DNA from: a virus
Lineage: Duplodnaviria > Heunggongvirae > Uroviricota > Caudoviricetes
DNA length: 10,164 nt
Reading direction: 5' to 3' (one strand)
IMG/VR virus record: IMGVR_UViG_2617270946_000003
This document shows positions 1-10,164 of the stretch, in pieces. Position 1 is the first letter of the stretch. Each line of letters begins with the position of its first letter. Below the pieces are notes generated by a model. The model ran no database searches, had not been told where the DNA came from, and worked only from the letters and a program-made list of their open reading frames with translations. The position numbers and the translations under genes were made by a program.

Positions 1-76
1 CCTCACAGTTTATCCCGCCATATTCGTTGCTGGCTGCATTTCGTACTGCAAGAATCTCTTTTCCCTTATCCACCAT
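1..76 (-). CDS. Partial ORF immediately downstream of the tail fibre gene (3' end beyond window edge); function unknown, by position possibly a tail fibre assembly/chaperone gene
   Basis: On the minus strand the fibre stop TAG (87..85) is followed directly by AGGAGG (84..79) and ATG (76..74), with in-frame GTG at 73..71. It reads MVDKGKEILAVRNAASNEYGGINCE to the window edge. Not recognised as lambda Tfa. Confidence 0.35.
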   Translation of the reverse strand, partial: MVDKGKEILAVRNAASNEYGGINCE

Positions 77-84
77 GACCTCCT

Positions 85-1323
85 CTATGATATGCGCTGA
101 AATAATCCTGCCTGTCTGATACCCGGAGATGATGTCCATAGCATCGGACCACATGCACGCCACGTGCCCGGTAAACGGGTCTCCCCCACATTACCGGAAG
201 CAACCAGGGGAGTACCATCCGAAAGGCAACATGCAGACAGTGATGAGCCGGCAATGGCTGAGCCCGGTGCCATATCCCCCGAATAACTCGTCGCATAATA
301 TGCCGCAAGGACAAAAGAACCGACACCAAACAGTCCGCTGTCAGGACTTCCTGACGGTCCCTGAGGTCCTGCCGGACCTGCGGCTCCCGTATCTCCTTTT
401 GGCCCCTGAGGCCCTGCCTGACCTGCGGCTCCCGTATCCCCTTTTGGCCCCTGTGGTCCTGCCGGGCCTGCAGCTCCCGTATCTCCCTTTGGCCCCTGAG
501 GTCCTGCCGGACCTGCGGCTCCCGTATCTCCTTTTGGCCCCTGAGGTCCTGCCGGGCCTGCAGCTCCCGTATCTCCCTTTGGCCCCTGAGGTCCTGCCGG
601 ACCTGCGGCTCCCGTATCTCCTTTTGGCCCCTGAGGCCCTGCCTGACCTGCGGCTCCCGTATCCCCTTTTGGCCCCTGAGGCCCTGCCGGGCCTGCGGCT
701 CCCGTATCCCCTTTTGGCCCCTGAAGCCCTGCCGGGCCTGTATCCCCCTTGTCGCCCTTCGGTCCCAGTGGTCCGCCCGGATCGCCCTGCTCACCTTTCG
801 GACCTGTATCCCCCTTATCGCCCTTGTCACCTTTATCCCCTTTCGGCCCCGGTGGCCCTGCCGGGCCTGTATCGCCCTTGTCCCCCTTCTGTCCCTGTGG
901 ACCAGTTGCTCCGGTGTCGCCTTTCAGTCCCTGTGGCCCCACGGCAGTTTCGGCTTTCTCAGCAGCTTCTCGCGCCCTGCGCACAGCCTCATCCGCCGCC
1001 GCTTCCAGCTTCTTCAGTGCATCAGGATAATACGCTGCATCCGTTTCACGGAGCAGAAAGGCATTCAGGGTGCCCGGTTCGTCGTCGGCCATGACATCAA
1101 TCTCGCCGGCGCATGCCGGCTGACGACCTTCCACGCACAAGGTCACACGATAACGCCCCGGCTCAACCTGCATGCTGTAACTGCCCGTTTCGCCTGGCTG
1201 GTGCTCTGCCACCGTGGTGACTATCACCGTCTCACTCGTTCGCGTGGCTTTCAGCTCTATGGTGCAGTCCGGTACCGGTTTTCCTGTACCATCCTTCAGC
1301 ACACCTGAAATCTGTACTGACAT
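85..1323 (-). CDS. stf: Side tail fibre protein with collagen-like (Gly-X-Y) repeat shaft; N-terminal ~100 aa resemble the lambda Stf N-terminal domain
   Basis: 412-aa ORF with ATG at 1323..1321 preceded by a G-rich SD. N-terminus [17 protein letters not shown]...GTLNAFL resembles lambda Stf ([26 protein letters not shown]...GTLNDFL, from memory). Followed by a charged helical segment, then ~65 Gly-X-Y triplets and a ~95-aa non-repetitive C-terminus. Confidence 0.85.
359..718. repeat. Eight near-identical head-to-tail copies of a 45-bp unit (15 codons, [15 protein letters not shown]-type) inside the fibre gene
   Basis: Unit cctgaggtcctgccggacctgcggctcccgtatctccttttggcc begins at 359, 404, 449, 494, 539, 584, 629 and 674. 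Units at 359, 494 and 584 are identical, as are those at 404 and 629. More degenerate 9-bp collagen triplet repeats continue to ~942. Confidence 0.92.
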
Positions 1324-2096
1324 ATTCCCCCCACAAAAAAGCCCACCAGAACCGGCGGGCTGTCATAACTCTGTGTTACCTGGCTATGGTAGTTCACCGT
1401 CATCTGCTGACCACCAAACTGCTCCGCATCCACCTGCATCCCCACAATGGCCGTGTTCGGGTAGCACTGTTTCACATCGATGATTTCGGTGTATGACGAC
1501 CACAGCGTTCTGTTCTGCAGCTGGTCCGTGGTGCTGTCCGCCGTCTCCCTGACCATCCGGATGTTAAAGGGGCGGGGAGGCAGATTATCCAGAATCACCG
1601 AGGCCAGGAACTGTGAGGTGGTCTTGCCGTTAATGGTGACATCCTTTTCTGTCACCCAGTTACCGTTACGCTGTAACTGAATCAGCAGACGGACAGAGGA
1701 CGGATTACGGTCACCCTTTGACGTGGTCTCCACCAGTGACTGCACCCCGAAGGTCACCCGCAGGCGGTCAATGTTCGCTGACGTAATGGTGCGTGTTACC
1801 GGTTTTGCCCTGGTCACTTCGACACCCAGTACAGTTTCAGAGCCGGAGGACTCAAAGCCTTCCGGTGGTGTCTGCTCCTGCTCCCCGGCACGCCAGACCG
1901 CGGTCACACCGTGTATCACGGGATTACCGTCCGTGTCCGTCAGCGGGGTTTTGTTCACCAGAATACTCTGCAGGCTTTTCACCGGGCCTTCTATCGGTCC
2001 CTCACCAATCGCATCAATCACGCTCATCATCTGCGTGGATTTGAGATTGTCTTTCGCCTCACGAGGCGTGTGTGCCTTACCGCCACCTTTTCCCAT
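1296..2096 (-). pseudogene. J: Truncated central tail fibre / host specificity protein J: only the N-terminal ~236 codons, then ~30 unrelated codons to a stop
   Basis: MGKGGGKAHTPREAKDNLKSTQ...NIRMVRETADSTTDQLQNRTLWSSYTEIIDVKQCYPNTA matches the lambda J N-terminus (MGKGSSKGHTPREAKDNLKSTQ..., from memory) at roughly 80% identity. Similarity stops after ...QQMTVNYH (~1385). Lambda J is 1132 aa. SD GGGGAAGG precedes the ATG at 2096. Confidence 0.85.
1333..1361 (-). terminator. Hairpin plus U-tract just upstream of the fibre start codon (putative intrinsic terminator/attenuator)
   Basis: Minus-strand RNA AGCCCGCCGG-UU-CUGGUGGGCU followed by UUUUUUGU, ~10 nt before the fibre ATG. Stem includes two G-U pairs. 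Confidence 0.4.
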
Positions 2097-2441: not shown

Positions 2442-3105
2442 ACCCCTGCCGCCCGATAACCACGACCTTTCCGCCCCCGCCTTCATCACGGGTGCTGATG
2501 TCCTGGGATATACGGCGGGAGCCAACCAGCATTTCCCCGTAAGGCACCGGCATCGGGTTCCCCTGGGCAATCATGTTATCCAGCGAGGAAAAGTACGTGT
2601 TCTGTCTGCCGTTATCCGTTGCGCGGTAATCCGGTGTTTTTGCCTTCGGGGCCAGCATCTGGGCCACACCGCCCAGTATCATGCTGGCACCCAGTGAAAA
2701 CAGCATCGTGGTGGCAGAAAAACCACCGGCACTCAGGGCTGTACCCCATAACGCCATCGAGCCTCCGGCCGTGAAGAAAGAGCCCACGATGGCTGCCGCC
2801 CCCAACACAATCTGCAGTCCACCCTTTCCGGCCCCGGCCAGTCGCGGCACAATGTGGATGACCGTTCCCTCACCCAGCTGTTCGTGAAGGCGGGCGTACA
2901 CCACCTCCGGTGCCGTGTCTTCACCGGCAATACGTATCTGGTACCAGCCTTCGTTCATCTGAAGGCGAAAGCCCGGCATCTGCATCGACAGGGCGCGAAT
3001 GGCTTCCGCTGCCGTGTTCACATACAGGCTGAGGCGGCGGCCAAATCGTTGTAAATCCCCGTGGTTGCCCACGGTTGAGCCAGAGATAACAGCTTCCACC
3101 ATCAT
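2440..3105 (-). pseudogene. I: Tail assembly protein I homologue lacking its native N-terminus (first ~15 codons come from the FII/I deletion junction)
   Basis: From residue ~16 (GDLQRFGRR...) to the C-terminus (...GGKVVVIGRQG) it resembles lambda gpI (223 aa, from memory). The ATG at 3105 lies inside FII-derived sequence in another frame. Stop TAA at 2442..2440. Confidence 0.75.
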
Positions 3106-6582: not shown

Positions 6583-7735
6583 TCTTCTCCTCCTCTGTTG
6601 ATTGTCGCAGTCCGGATTCAAATGCCGCAGCCGCCCAGGCGGGCGGTTTAAGACCGGCTGCACGGCGCTCCATCGTTTCACGGACCTGCTGGGCAAAAAT
6701 TTCCTGATAGTCGTCACCGCGTTTTGCGCACTCTTTCTCGTAGGTACTCAGTCCGGCTTCTATCAGCATCACCGCTTCCTGTACTTCTTTCAGACCATCG
6801 ATGGCCATACGACCGGAGCCTATCCAGTCACAGTTCCCCCAGGCGCTGCGGGCTTCCTGAAAGCTGAAACGCGCTTTTGAAGGTAACGTCACCACGCGGC
6901 GAACGATGGCCTCTTCCAGCCAGCACAGAAACATCTGGCTCGCCTGACGGGATGCGACGAATTTTCGCCGCCCCATAAAGTACGCCCACGACTCGTTCGC
7001 ACTGGCCCGTGCCGTGGAATAGCTCATCTGGGCGTAATTCCGGGAAAGCTGCTCATACGAGACACCCAGCCCGGCAGCGATATACCGCAACAGTGACTGC
7101 TCAAACACGGAGTAGCCGTTATCCGTATCCTGAGCCGTCTGCAGGTTCAGTGAGTCACCCGGCATCAGGTGCGGCACTTTTGCGCCTCCCAGCCGAACCG
7201 GTGCTGCGGCGTAATACGCGGCAATTTCACCAATCCAGCCGGTCAGCTTGTCCCGCTGCTCCTGACTGTTCGCGCCCAGAATAAAATCCATCGCTGACTG
7301 CGTATCCAGCTCACTCTCAATGGTGGCGGCATACATCGCCTTCACAATGGCGCTCTGCAGCTGCGTGTTCTGCAGCGTGTCGAGCATCTTCATCTGCTCC
7401 ATCACGCTGTAAAACACATTTGCACCGCGGGTCTGCCCGTCCTCCACGGGTTCAAAAACGTGAATGAACGAGGCGCGCCCGCCGGGTAACTCACGGGGTA
7501 TCCATGTCCATTTCTGCGGCATCCAGCCAGGATAGCCGTCCTCGCTGACGTAATATCCCAGCGCCGCACCGCTGTCATTAATCTGCACACCGGCACGGCA
7601 GTTCCGGCTGTCGCCGGTATTGTTCGGGTTGCTGATGCGCTTCGGGCTGACCATCCGGAACTGTGTCCGGAAAAGCCACGACGGACTGGTATCCCAGGTG
7701 GCCTGAACGAACAGTTCACCGTTAAAGGCGTGCAT
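6563..7735 (-). pseudogene. B: Portal protein B lacking roughly its N-terminal 143 codons
   Basis: C-terminal ~390 aa (MHAFNGELFVQATWDTS...EEEKSDSRAA) match lambda gpB (533 aa). The A-stop to C-start distance is 1193 nt here versus 1781 nt in lambda, so 588 bp are missing. The first in-frame ATG is 7735; the track start at 7759 is TTG. Confidence 0.85.
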
Positions 7736-7778
7736 GCAGTGCCGCACGGGCAGCGGCAAGTTCTTCCTGTCGCGTCAT
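7722..7778 (-). pseudogene. W: Remnant of head-tail joining gene W: 15 conserved codons, then 3 novel codons and a stop
   Basis: ATG at 7778 overlaps the A stop (ATGA). Translation [18 protein letters not shown]-stop versus lambda W [21 protein letters not shown]... (68 aa). Confidence 0.7.
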
Positions 7779-9700: not shown

Positions 9701-10164
9701 TCAGCAACCCCGGTATCAGTTCATCCAGCGCGGCTGCTTTGTTCATGGCTTTGATGATATCCCGTTTCAGGAAATCAACATGTCGGTTTTCCAGTTCCGG
9801 AAAACGCCGCTGCACCGACAGGGGGATCCCGTCGAGAATACTGGCAATTTCACCTGCGATCCGCGACAACACGAAAGTACAGAATGCGGTTTCCACCACT
9901 TCAGCGGAGTCTCTGGCATTCTTCAGTTCCTGTGCGTCGGCCTGCGCACGCGTAAGTCGATGGCGTTCGTACTCAATAGTCCCTGGCTGGAGATCTGTCT
10001 CGCTGGCCTGCCGCAGTTCTTCAACTTCCCGGCGCAGCTTTTCGTTCTCAATTTCAGCATCCCTTTCGGCATACCATTTTATGACGGCGGCAGAGTCATA
10101 AAGCACCTCATTACCCTTGCCACCGCCTCGCAGAACGGGCATTCCCTGTTCCTGCCAGTTCTGA
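9675..10164 (-). CDS. Nu1: Terminase small subunit Nu1 (5' end outside the window; ~26 N-terminal codons missing from view)
   Basis: ...QNWQEQGMPVLRGGGKGNEVLYDSAAVIKWYAERDAEIENEKLRREVEELRQASE...SEYIEQSG matches lambda Nu1 residues ~19-181. The frame stays open to the window edge. Confidence 0.93.
   Translation of the reverse strand, partial: QNWQEQGMPVLRGGGKGNEVLYDSAAVIKWYAERDAEIENEKLRREVEELRQASETDLQPGTIEYERHRLTRAQADAQELKNARDSAEVVETAFCTFVLSRIAGEIASILDGIPLSVQRRFPELENRHVDFLKRDIIKAMNKAAALDELIPGLLSEYIEQSG

Follow-up and report, generated by a model that had tools for sequence, protein, structure and literature searches.

The open reading frame (ORF) described here, on the minus strand of the analysed DNA, is very probably the side tail fibre gene of a lambdoid prophage. 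It occupies the position of stf and encodes a collagen-like fibre of the EPclC type, for which an assembly mechanism is proposed below.

The window (the whole stretch of DNA that was analysed; 10,164 bp) is a complete contig of a draft assembly (JNRI01000098.1, GCA_000704605.1), and this contig is on record in two samples. It contains a minus-strand lambda-type late operon composed of Nu1, A, portal, C/Nu3, D, E, FI, FII and I genes, a J fragment and the fibre ORF. The head genes share 98% identity with those of lambda-like coliphages such as PhiR29_1. Features of the fibre ORF and of the adjacent gene are listed below.

1..76, minus strand: start of a DUF4376 gene encoding a putative fibre chaperone; 25 codons, translation MVDKGKEILAVRNAASNEYGGINCE; cut by the contig end
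79..84, minus strand: ribosome binding site AGGAGG, read from the sequence; abuts the fibre stop codon and lies 2 nt before the next ATG, which points to translational coupling
85..1323, minus strand: complete side tail fibre ORF, 412 aa plus TAG stop (85-87); ORF list, contig gene call and PHROG
88..342, minus strand: all-beta C-terminal tip, residues 328-412, ending in GLFQRIS; probable trimerisation nucleus and receptor-binding head
343..939, minus strand: collagen-like shaft, residues 129-327, 66 Gly-X-Y triplets (19 + 47); PF01391
359..740, no strand assigned: 45-nt tandem repeat, 8.5 copies with 92% matches, encoding a 15-aa unit that ends in (P/Q)A (TRF)
763..786, minus strand: G-D-P-G-G-P-L-G, residues 180-187, the sole break of the triplet register; probable kink
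940..1038, minus strand: flexible linker and short charged helix, residues 96-128, a probable trimeric coiled-coil stub; read from the sequence, within the PF08400 match
1039..1323, minus strand: Stf-type N-terminal "collar" domain (PfN, PF08400) docking the fibre to the tail, residues 1-95

Domain organization of the predicted fibre

The best PHROG match of the ORF product was PHROG 366 ("tail fiber protein", E 1e-88). Its length of 412 aa, given by the initial annotation, is that of the ORF at 85-1323 without the stop codon, and an allele of the same length is present in E. coli ZH48, where it sits between lom and a DUF4376 gene. The proposal that the first ~100 residues resemble the lambda side tail fibre was borne out: Pfam assigned residues 1-127 to PF08400 "Prophage tail fibre N-terminal" (E 1e-40), and residues 1-91 aligned with residues 1-91 of lambda Stf (PDB 9e7m) with 55/91 (60%) identical positions (E 5e-29). 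In Ur-lambda, cryo-EM revealed 12 collar domains that ring the gpV/gpM junction and give rise to four trimeric side fibres (PMC12617516).

The charged helical linker noted previously corresponds to residues ~96-128. In lambda Stf a linker occupies residues 92-101 and is followed by a coiled coil (PMC12617516), while the last ~30 residues of PfN were predicted to be helical by Ghosh et al. 2012 (PMC3368898). Only ~33 residues separate the PfN core from the collagen-like region of the window fibre, which has no long PCoil domain.

Beyond the collar, the resemblance to Stf of Ur-lambda (PDB 9e7m/9mgh; PMC12617516), i.e. a 60%-identical domain and a slot downstream of J and lom, does not extend further. 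Lambda Stf has a beta-helical/coiled-coil shaft, Pf2 repeats, a gp37-like OmpC-binding end and the partner protein Tfa (PF02413), whereas the window fibre has a collagen shaft, an unrelated tip and a DUF4376 partner. No Pfam matches typical of the Stf shaft or of its gp37-like distal region were found in the window fibre, and the downstream gene belongs to DUF4376, not to Tfa (PF02413).

The shaft was matched by PF01391 (Collagen) in four stretches. The initial annotation estimated ~65 Gly-X-Y triplets; 66 were counted at residues 129-327, arranged in runs of 57 and 141 aa with one residue between them, and no Pf2 (PF03406) match was found in the fibre. All 18 lysines in the Y position of the shaft are followed by G-D or G-E (17 KGD and one KGE). 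Charge pairs of the KGD/KGE type are a pattern that stabilises triple helices free of hydroxyproline. The rise of the collagen triple helix is 0.286 nm per residue, so the 199 residues of the shaft would span ~57 nm if wholly triple-helical. The 45-nt repeat is the source of length polymorphism of the fibre: alleles of 374, 404, 412 and 467 aa occur in strains, and repeat number is the main difference between them.

Collagen-like proteins of bacteria also include surface adhesins of the Lcl or Scl type, and NCBIfam collagen-adhesin models matched the Gly-X-Y region (Lcl, 169 bits). That the ORF encodes such an adhesin instead of a phage fibre is highly improbable. The scores fall well short of the curated thresholds (169 vs 500; 114 vs 325 and 400) and are confined to the repeats, for which reason this identity was rejected. 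Moreover, the N-terminus is a Stf collar domain that begins directly at the start of the sequence, the gene lies in the stf slot after J-lom, and no LPXTG motif was found in the fibre sequence.

Assignment to the EPcl class

Ghosh et al. 2012 (PMC3368898) described a class of collagen-like proteins, named EPcl, that E. coli prophages encode. These proteins consist of PfN (PF08400), Col and a C-terminal domain, in some cases with a PCoil ahead of Col. Their Col domains often carry a single G-X-P-G-G-P-X-G interruption. The common types EPclA and EPclB end in PfC (PF06820), and the rare types EPclC and EPclD have uncharacterised "different C-terminal regions"; members of type EPclC are listed with two Col lengths, for Col domains with a non-collagen stretch between them, and EPclC* variants with one Col (PMC3368898).

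The window fibre has the PF08400 N-terminus and a Gly-X-Y Col with the GDPGGPLG break. Its position in the tail fibre slot of a lambdoid prophage is indicated by the lambda-type late genes in the window and by the order J-lom-fibre in relatives. PF06820 did not match the tip at E <= 10 or the whole fibre at E <= 1, and the traits of EPclA and EPclB (PfC; PCoil of ~109-116 aa) are absent. Instead, the C-terminus is unrelated to PfC and is common to the listed EPclC examples.

Of the 5,426 complete E. coli genomes, only 34 contain the DNA of the tip and of the start of the next gene; strain 55989 and the lineage of the O104:H4 outbreak are among these 34. The homologue in strain 55989 (1,404 nt, 467 aa) was equated by strain and length with EC55989_1078, an "EPclC*" protein. 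Its tip is identical to that of the window fibre at 84/89 positions (~94%; DNA 94%). ORF-401 of P-EibA, a type EPclC example, ends in a diverged form of the same tip (profile positions 5-90, 30 bits). Judging by sequence, the window protein is an EPclC-type fibre of minimal layout (PfN, one long Col and tip), since it lacks PF06820 and PCoil and its tip is the same as those of the 55989 gene and ORF-401.

The fusion of a Stf-type N-terminus with collagen, to which the initial annotation drew attention, is not unusual: the architecture is that of the described EPcl class (PMC3368898), and the tip is that of its EPclC examples EC55989_1078 and P-EibA ORF-401. The descriptive statements of that annotation are correct, and the features lie far beyond chance. 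E. coli prophages were known to carry collagen-like side tail fibres from P-EibA (2000) onwards, and a systematic scheme followed in 2012; the fibre itself changes little in this picture. The new element is modest: the "different C-terminal region" of EPclC is now definable as a conserved module at the fibre tip, recognisable by its motifs.

With EC55989_1078 and P-EibA ORF-401 the window fibre shares PfN, collagen with the GXPGGPXG break, a non-PfC tip, the slot after J-lom and DUF4376 downstream. It differs from EC55989_1078 by the absence of the 116-aa PCoil. The PhiR12_5-type protein of 517 aa has its collagen split by a Pf2 repeat, whereas the window fibre has no Pf2 and a single run of 199 residues. 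In contrast to the EPclC examples, the window gene lies in a deleted, tail-less prophage. EPclA proteins (e.g. ECs2717 of O157:H7 Sakai) have the same PfN-Col-C-terminal globular layout, and EPclA, as the sole biochemically characterised member, serves as the working model, but its PfC (PF06820) and 116-aa PCoil are absent from the window fibre.

The C-terminal tip and its distribution

The initial annotation described an unrecognised C-terminus of ~95 aa, rich in Ser, Gly and Ala and containing several cysteines. The non-collagen C-terminus comprises 85 aa, or 89 aa when counted from the final SGSP, with 17% Ser, 16% Gly, 11% Ala and three cysteines (residues 365, 366 and 391). Searches with the tip alone against Pfam, NCBIfam and PDB sequences gave no family or usable match covering it, in line with that description. 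The PDB sequence search yielded a weak end-to-end match to the last 76 residues of gp47, the tail fibre of Pseudomonas phage Pa193. PDB 9b45 models residues 1-340 of gp47, and the tip falls outside the model (PMC11456595). A profile search of the PDB returned only Pa193 gp47, a re-finding that is circular because the gp47 sequence was already in the profile. A match of BamB to the tip (E 0.25) was dismissed as chance.

The tip was modelled as a monomer with AF2 at moderate confidence (pLDDT 77.8). Foldseek comparison of this model with BFVD gave matches of probability 1.0, with TM scores of 0.55-0.74; the matched structures are C-terminal ends of annotated tail fibres and come from at least 20 diverse phages.

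A single-sequence word-index search with the tip found E. coli fragments only, and phmmer, run exhaustively over 1.84 billion representatives, found eight matches. Five of these (P0007 and P0009-P0012) were set aside as multi-stretch, low-complexity matches. In another one (P0008), Col and tip with 47% identity follow a different N-terminus with a P2/T4-type fibre motif; Col and tip therefore travel as a cassette. Using tblastn, matches of 31-36% identity were located in T4-like Klebsiella phages, where they form the very C-terminal end of the distal long tail fibres; a match in the same range also ends the 517-aa PfN-Col-Pf2-Col protein of lambdoid phage PhiR12_5. A profile built from seven tip-bearing ends recovered 50 proteins, many of them metagenomic and ~110-165 aa long.

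An alignment of 30 tip sequences revealed the conserved motifs VG[ST][YF]xFA, AGSxL and LxGTWRCxG and the last residues [AT]L[WF]xRI[SA]; the residues G, S, L, G, W and R are invariant within it. The family so delimited is ~80-95 aa long, and the window tip has each of its hallmarks: location at the extreme C-terminus, VG[ST][YF], AGSxL, G[TS]W[RM] and the terminal L[FW]xR[IV]x. The same family, as yet unnamed, includes the C-termini of Pa193 gp47, JG004 ORF84 and P-EibA ORF-401. The fibres of Pa193 (gp47, PDB 9b45, Pbunavirus) and JG004 (ORF84, Pakpunavirus) carry it at the extreme C-terminus as the window fibre does, but at ~30-36% identity, and theirs are mounted on contractile-tail baseplates and have beta-structured shafts.

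The possibility that the C-terminus is a common and well-characterised fibre tip, in which case nothing would set the fusion apart, thus holds in one half: the tip is recurrent across many phage fibres, yet it is unnamed and has neither a family model nor a solved structure. This compact domain merits a family entry and a structure. It is common to fibres of Pseudomonas, Aeromonas, Klebsiella and marine phages, and in enterobacterial phages the gene encoding it is always followed by one for a DUF4376 chaperone.

A more tentative reading is that the tip constitutes an undescribed receptor-binding fold that has spread as a cassette over the fibres of sipho-, myo- and podoviruses of Proteobacteria, served by at least three unrelated chaperones (DUF4376, PF16778 and PF02413-like). 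If this were true, the version with a collagen shaft from E. coli would be the simplest natural scaffold for structural work and for fibre retargeting.

The downstream DUF4376 gene

Tail fibre genes of some phages are directly followed by a gene for a protein of ~200 aa with the DUF4376 domain, as in V22 (gp26/gp27) and A5 (gp8/gp9) (PMC7289586, PMC10579305). The window carries the start of such a gene: 23 of the 25 encoded residues are identical to those of a 202-aa protein of E. coli ZH48 (WP_097562161), which was assigned to PF14301 (DUF4376; E 8e-17) and PHROG 1141. In all intact relatives examined the gene order is I, J, lom, fibre, DUF4376, a YkgJ-family gene and the prophage end, and the order J-lom-fibre-DUF4376 was seen at two different integration sites. 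Intact relatives include the prophages of ZH48, 55989 and S1-CAM-01-A.

A tblastn search with the DUF4376 protein identified 29 phage records. Four fibres encoded directly upstream of the homologues in these records were examined, and all four end in the tip:

P-EibA: ORF-401
phiP27: L56
Av-05: gp76
Actinobacillus pPE4: gp69

For phiP27, Av-05 and pPE4 the tip HMM gives low scores (13-15 bits), and these assignments rest on end-to-end agreement of the motifs. Neighbouring fibres with other partners (phiP27 L54 and Av-05 gp78) do not have the tip. The pairing of tip and DUF4376 was also found in PhiR12_5 and in a metagenomic short fibre.

Other partner families accompany the tip as well. The gene following the JG004 fibre gene encodes a PF16778 protein, where the window fibre has DUF4376, and a weak PF02413 match follows the fibre of Klebsiella phage Mexia. 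Conversely, V22 gp26, a proven DUF4376-dependent fibre, gave no match to the tip profile and has a different, lectin-like head, and neither the V22 nor the A5 fibre contains collagen. The pairing is thus non-exclusive in both directions, and the relation between tip and chaperone is drawn by analogy. DUF4376 proteins have been studied by experiment as fibre chaperones. In Alteromonas phage V22, the gp26 fibre requires gp27 to be functional, and gp27 is absent from the mature complex (PMC7289586). The chaperones A5 gp9 and V22 gp27 resemble intramolecular chaperone domains and have been proposed to act as transient caps; dependence on the chaperone was found for V22, while A5 was chaperone-independent (PMC10579305). 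By homology and position, the window fibre would likewise depend on its DUF4376 partner.

The tip as a candidate receptor-binding head

Comparison of E. coli tip alleles showed that substitutions cluster at tip residues 21-34, 46-60 and 71-79, which lie between the predicted strands. The window and ZH48 alleles differ at 22 positions, 11 of them in residues 374-402. Such a pattern, in which loops vary around a conserved core, is consistent with a receptor-binding head.

Indirect support comes from Pseudomonas phage JG004, in which host specificity is set by the tail fibre ORF84 (Le et al. 2013; PMC3706319). A single change in its variable C-terminus, K653N (A1959C), widens the host range, and infection by this phage requires O-antigen synthesis (PMC3706319). 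In the RefSeq genome of JG004, the first half of the tip (AVGTYVFA...VAGTSL) lies in the annotated frame and the second half (...TLSGSYRCMG...ITLFQKVAA, followed by a stop codon) in another one. The stop of this alternative frame gives exactly the published length of ORF84, 2,058 nt (685 aa). Codon 653 is AAA (Lys) and is located just upstream of the LSGSYRCMG motif, which would place K653N in the loop ahead of the conserved G-[TS]-[WY]-R strand; this mapping depends on reading the deposited sequence across the frameshift. An experimentally mapped host-range site thus falls within the tip family, which opens the receptor specificity of this fibre type, carried by the lineage of the O104:H4 outbreak, to experimental testing.

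An alternative division of labour assigns to the tip only the role of a nucleus for folding and trimerisation, with the DUF4376 protein staying at the fibre end as the real adhesin, in the manner of gp38 in T2-type phages or Tfa in Mu. The PHROG families matched by the DUF4376 protein do carry the label "tail fiber protein", such chaperones may be transient "caps" on fibre ends (Gonzalez-Serrano 2023; PMC10579305), and PfC of EPclA was shown to trimerise only, not to bind a receptor (PMC3368898). We nevertheless regard this division as unlikely, because V22 gp27 and the mature fibre do not elute together (PMC7289586), the host-range mutation of JG004 lies in the tip and not in the chaperone, allelic variation is concentrated in the tip loops, and the tip is found with three unrelated partner families. 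The C-terminal domain is plausibly both the trimerisation and the receptor-binding end of the fibre.

Proposed assembly of the fibre

EPclA forms a trimer that has the shape of a ~55-60-nm dumbbell under EM; its C-terminal domain is responsible both for trimerisation and for renucleation of the collagen helix (PMC3368898). We infer a comparable pathway for the window fibre. Three chains would trimerise from the C-terminus, with the ~85-aa beta tip folding first, probably aided by the DUF4376 protein, which is encoded immediately downstream and appears to be translationally coupled. The tip would then nucleate zipping of the 66-triplet collagen helix in the N-terminal direction, leaving a kink at GDPGGPLG, and the short N-terminal coiled coil would close the trimer. 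By analogy with Stf of Ur-lambda, residues 1-94 would make up the collar domain, and the three copies may dock at the junction of tail tube and tail tip (gpV/gpM) of a lambda-type tail. At the opposite end, the three variable loops of the tip would bind a receptor on the host surface, for which a saccharide (LPS) or a porin is the likeliest candidate, and this contact could speed adsorption ahead of binding by J.

State of the prophage

Comparison with intact relatives revealed three internal deletions in the window prophage. These, together with the retained spacer upstream of the fibre gene, are as follows.

7733-7736: junction W'-'B; 585 nt missing vs intact relatives, comprising most of W and ~143 N-terminal codons of portal gene B
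3063-3078: junction FII'-'K; the missing segment begins ~13 codons before the end of FII and reaches to the last ~15 codons of K; Z, U, V, G, T, H, M and L are lost, as is most of K
1382-1386: junction of J with the lom-stf spacer; missing from J codon ~238 to just beyond the lom stop
1324..1386, minus strand: lom-stf intergenic spacer, kept; its upstream edge (1382-1386) is the deletion junction, joined to J codon ~238 (blastn vs L001 and L007)

The J ORF runs out of J sequence after ...TVNYH, and the J-fibre junction was found in no complete E. coli genome. Since V and M are deleted, the gpV/gpM docking partners of the collar domain are not encoded by the window element. With V, M, most of J and part of the portal gene lost, the fibre is not mountable on a tail made by the same element. 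Its function in the window genome is therefore doubtful, given a prophage rendered defective by three deletions; these deletions need confirmation, having been read from a draft contig.

The fibre gene of this genome might accordingly be an inert relic, an undamaged ORF within a decaying prophage. This view, which concerns the window copy only and is compatible with its being a fibre gene, we consider somewhat less probable than its opposite. It is favoured by the three internal deletions and by the absence of the gpV and gpM docking partners. However, 66 uninterrupted triplets have been kept across the slippage-prone 45-nt repeat, with a length equal to that of the ZH48 allele, and a lambdoid phage resident in the same cell could use the fibre and its chaperone in trans. 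The deletions, moreover, are unverified in a draft assembly, though the same contig is on record in two samples.

A search of the entire window against Rfam gave zero matches. The AT-rich spacer of 343 nt between I and J was considered as a possible insertion and rejected as such, since the same spacer is present in the intact relatives.

Variation in the collagen-like fibre and its tip

Alleles of the collagen-like side tail fibre that are otherwise near-identical differ in the number of collagen repeats (positions 359-740 of the window; homologues in the E. coli loci L001, L005, L006 and L007), the predicted fibres being 374, 404, 412 and 467 aa long. Slippage or recombination within the 45-nt repeat appears to generate this length variation. 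The cysteines of the fibre tip are located as follows.

88-342: C-terminal tip domain, with cysteines at protein residues 365, 366 and 391

Two cysteines are conserved in the E. coli tip subfamily. One belongs to the strand 'AC(C/S/A)L'; the other stands two residues past the W-R pair, one residue later than in the WRC motif of the wider family. In that wider family only the GTWRC cysteine is retained.

The tip domain is also found at the end of a stand-alone protein of 158 aa, encoded by the metagenome contig k127_9932612 (642-1594). Its gene is followed by one encoding another 158-aa protein, with a faint signal of DUF4376 (the domain of the putative fibre chaperone), and then by lysozyme and holin genes; the two 158-aa proteins look like a minimal fibre-chaperone pair of an uncultured phage. 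Similar proteins of approximately 150-165 aa form a whole set (matches P0034-P0048).

In Pseudomonas phage JG004 (NC_019450), whose tail fibre ORF84 carries a tip-family domain at its C-terminus, the fibre tip is split between two reading frames in the deposited sequence (7170-7320). The stop codon of the alternative frame gives the published ORF84 length of 2,058 nt. This points to an indel error, or else an annotation problem, in the RefSeq gene PJG4_084, to which the record assigns 2,076 nt.

Deletions, contig ends and the I-J spacer

The prophage in the window is rich in head genes and devoid of tail genes, and its portal gene is truncated. Comparison with intact lambda-like relatives revealed the following three internal deletions.

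1382-1386: deletion from approximately codon 238 of J to the end of lom
3063-3078: FII'-'K deletion; Z, U, V, G, T, H, M and L are gone, as is most of K
7733-7736: W'-'B deletion; 585 nt are missing

Microhomology of 4-5 nt is present at the J-lom (1382-1386) and W'-'B (7733-7736) junctions.

At position 1 the contig breaks off after the first 76 nt of the DUF4376 gene, and at position 10164 inside or near Nu1/cos. The assembly was probably interrupted at both ends by sequences that recur among the resident prophages, and we therefore infer, rather than see, the presence of the DUF4376 (chaperone) gene in this strain.

2097-2439: I-J spacer of 343 nt, AT-richer (GC ~0.47)

In phage PhiR29_1, I and J are only ~60 nt apart. 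The spacer is 98% conserved in intact relatives (strain 2017.17.03CC), where it bears no annotation. An Rfam search returned no match within 2097-2439, and the only ORFs, of 113 aa (minus strand) and 94 aa (plus strand), are both unconvincing.

Cargo genes in related prophages

A gene of the YkgJ family (cysteine-cluster proteins) was distinguished in four loci of E. coli relatives.

L001, 4993-5322: YkgJ-family gene
L005, 3997-4325: YkgJ-family gene
L006, 4996-5325: YkgJ-family gene
L007, 18996-19325: YkgJ-family gene

It always has the DUF4376 gene on one side and the host flank on the other, and since this order recurs at two different integration sites (potB and tRNA-Ser/hya), the gene moves together with the prophage, as cargo at its end.

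Porin genes are likewise carried as cargo in lambdoid phages.

L007 (E. coli 2017.17.03CC), 27900-29033: ompC copy, inserted between tail genes L and M of one prophage
L010 (PhiR29_1), 23757-24854: OmpD gene, near Q

These porins may have a bearing on superinfection or on receptor masking.
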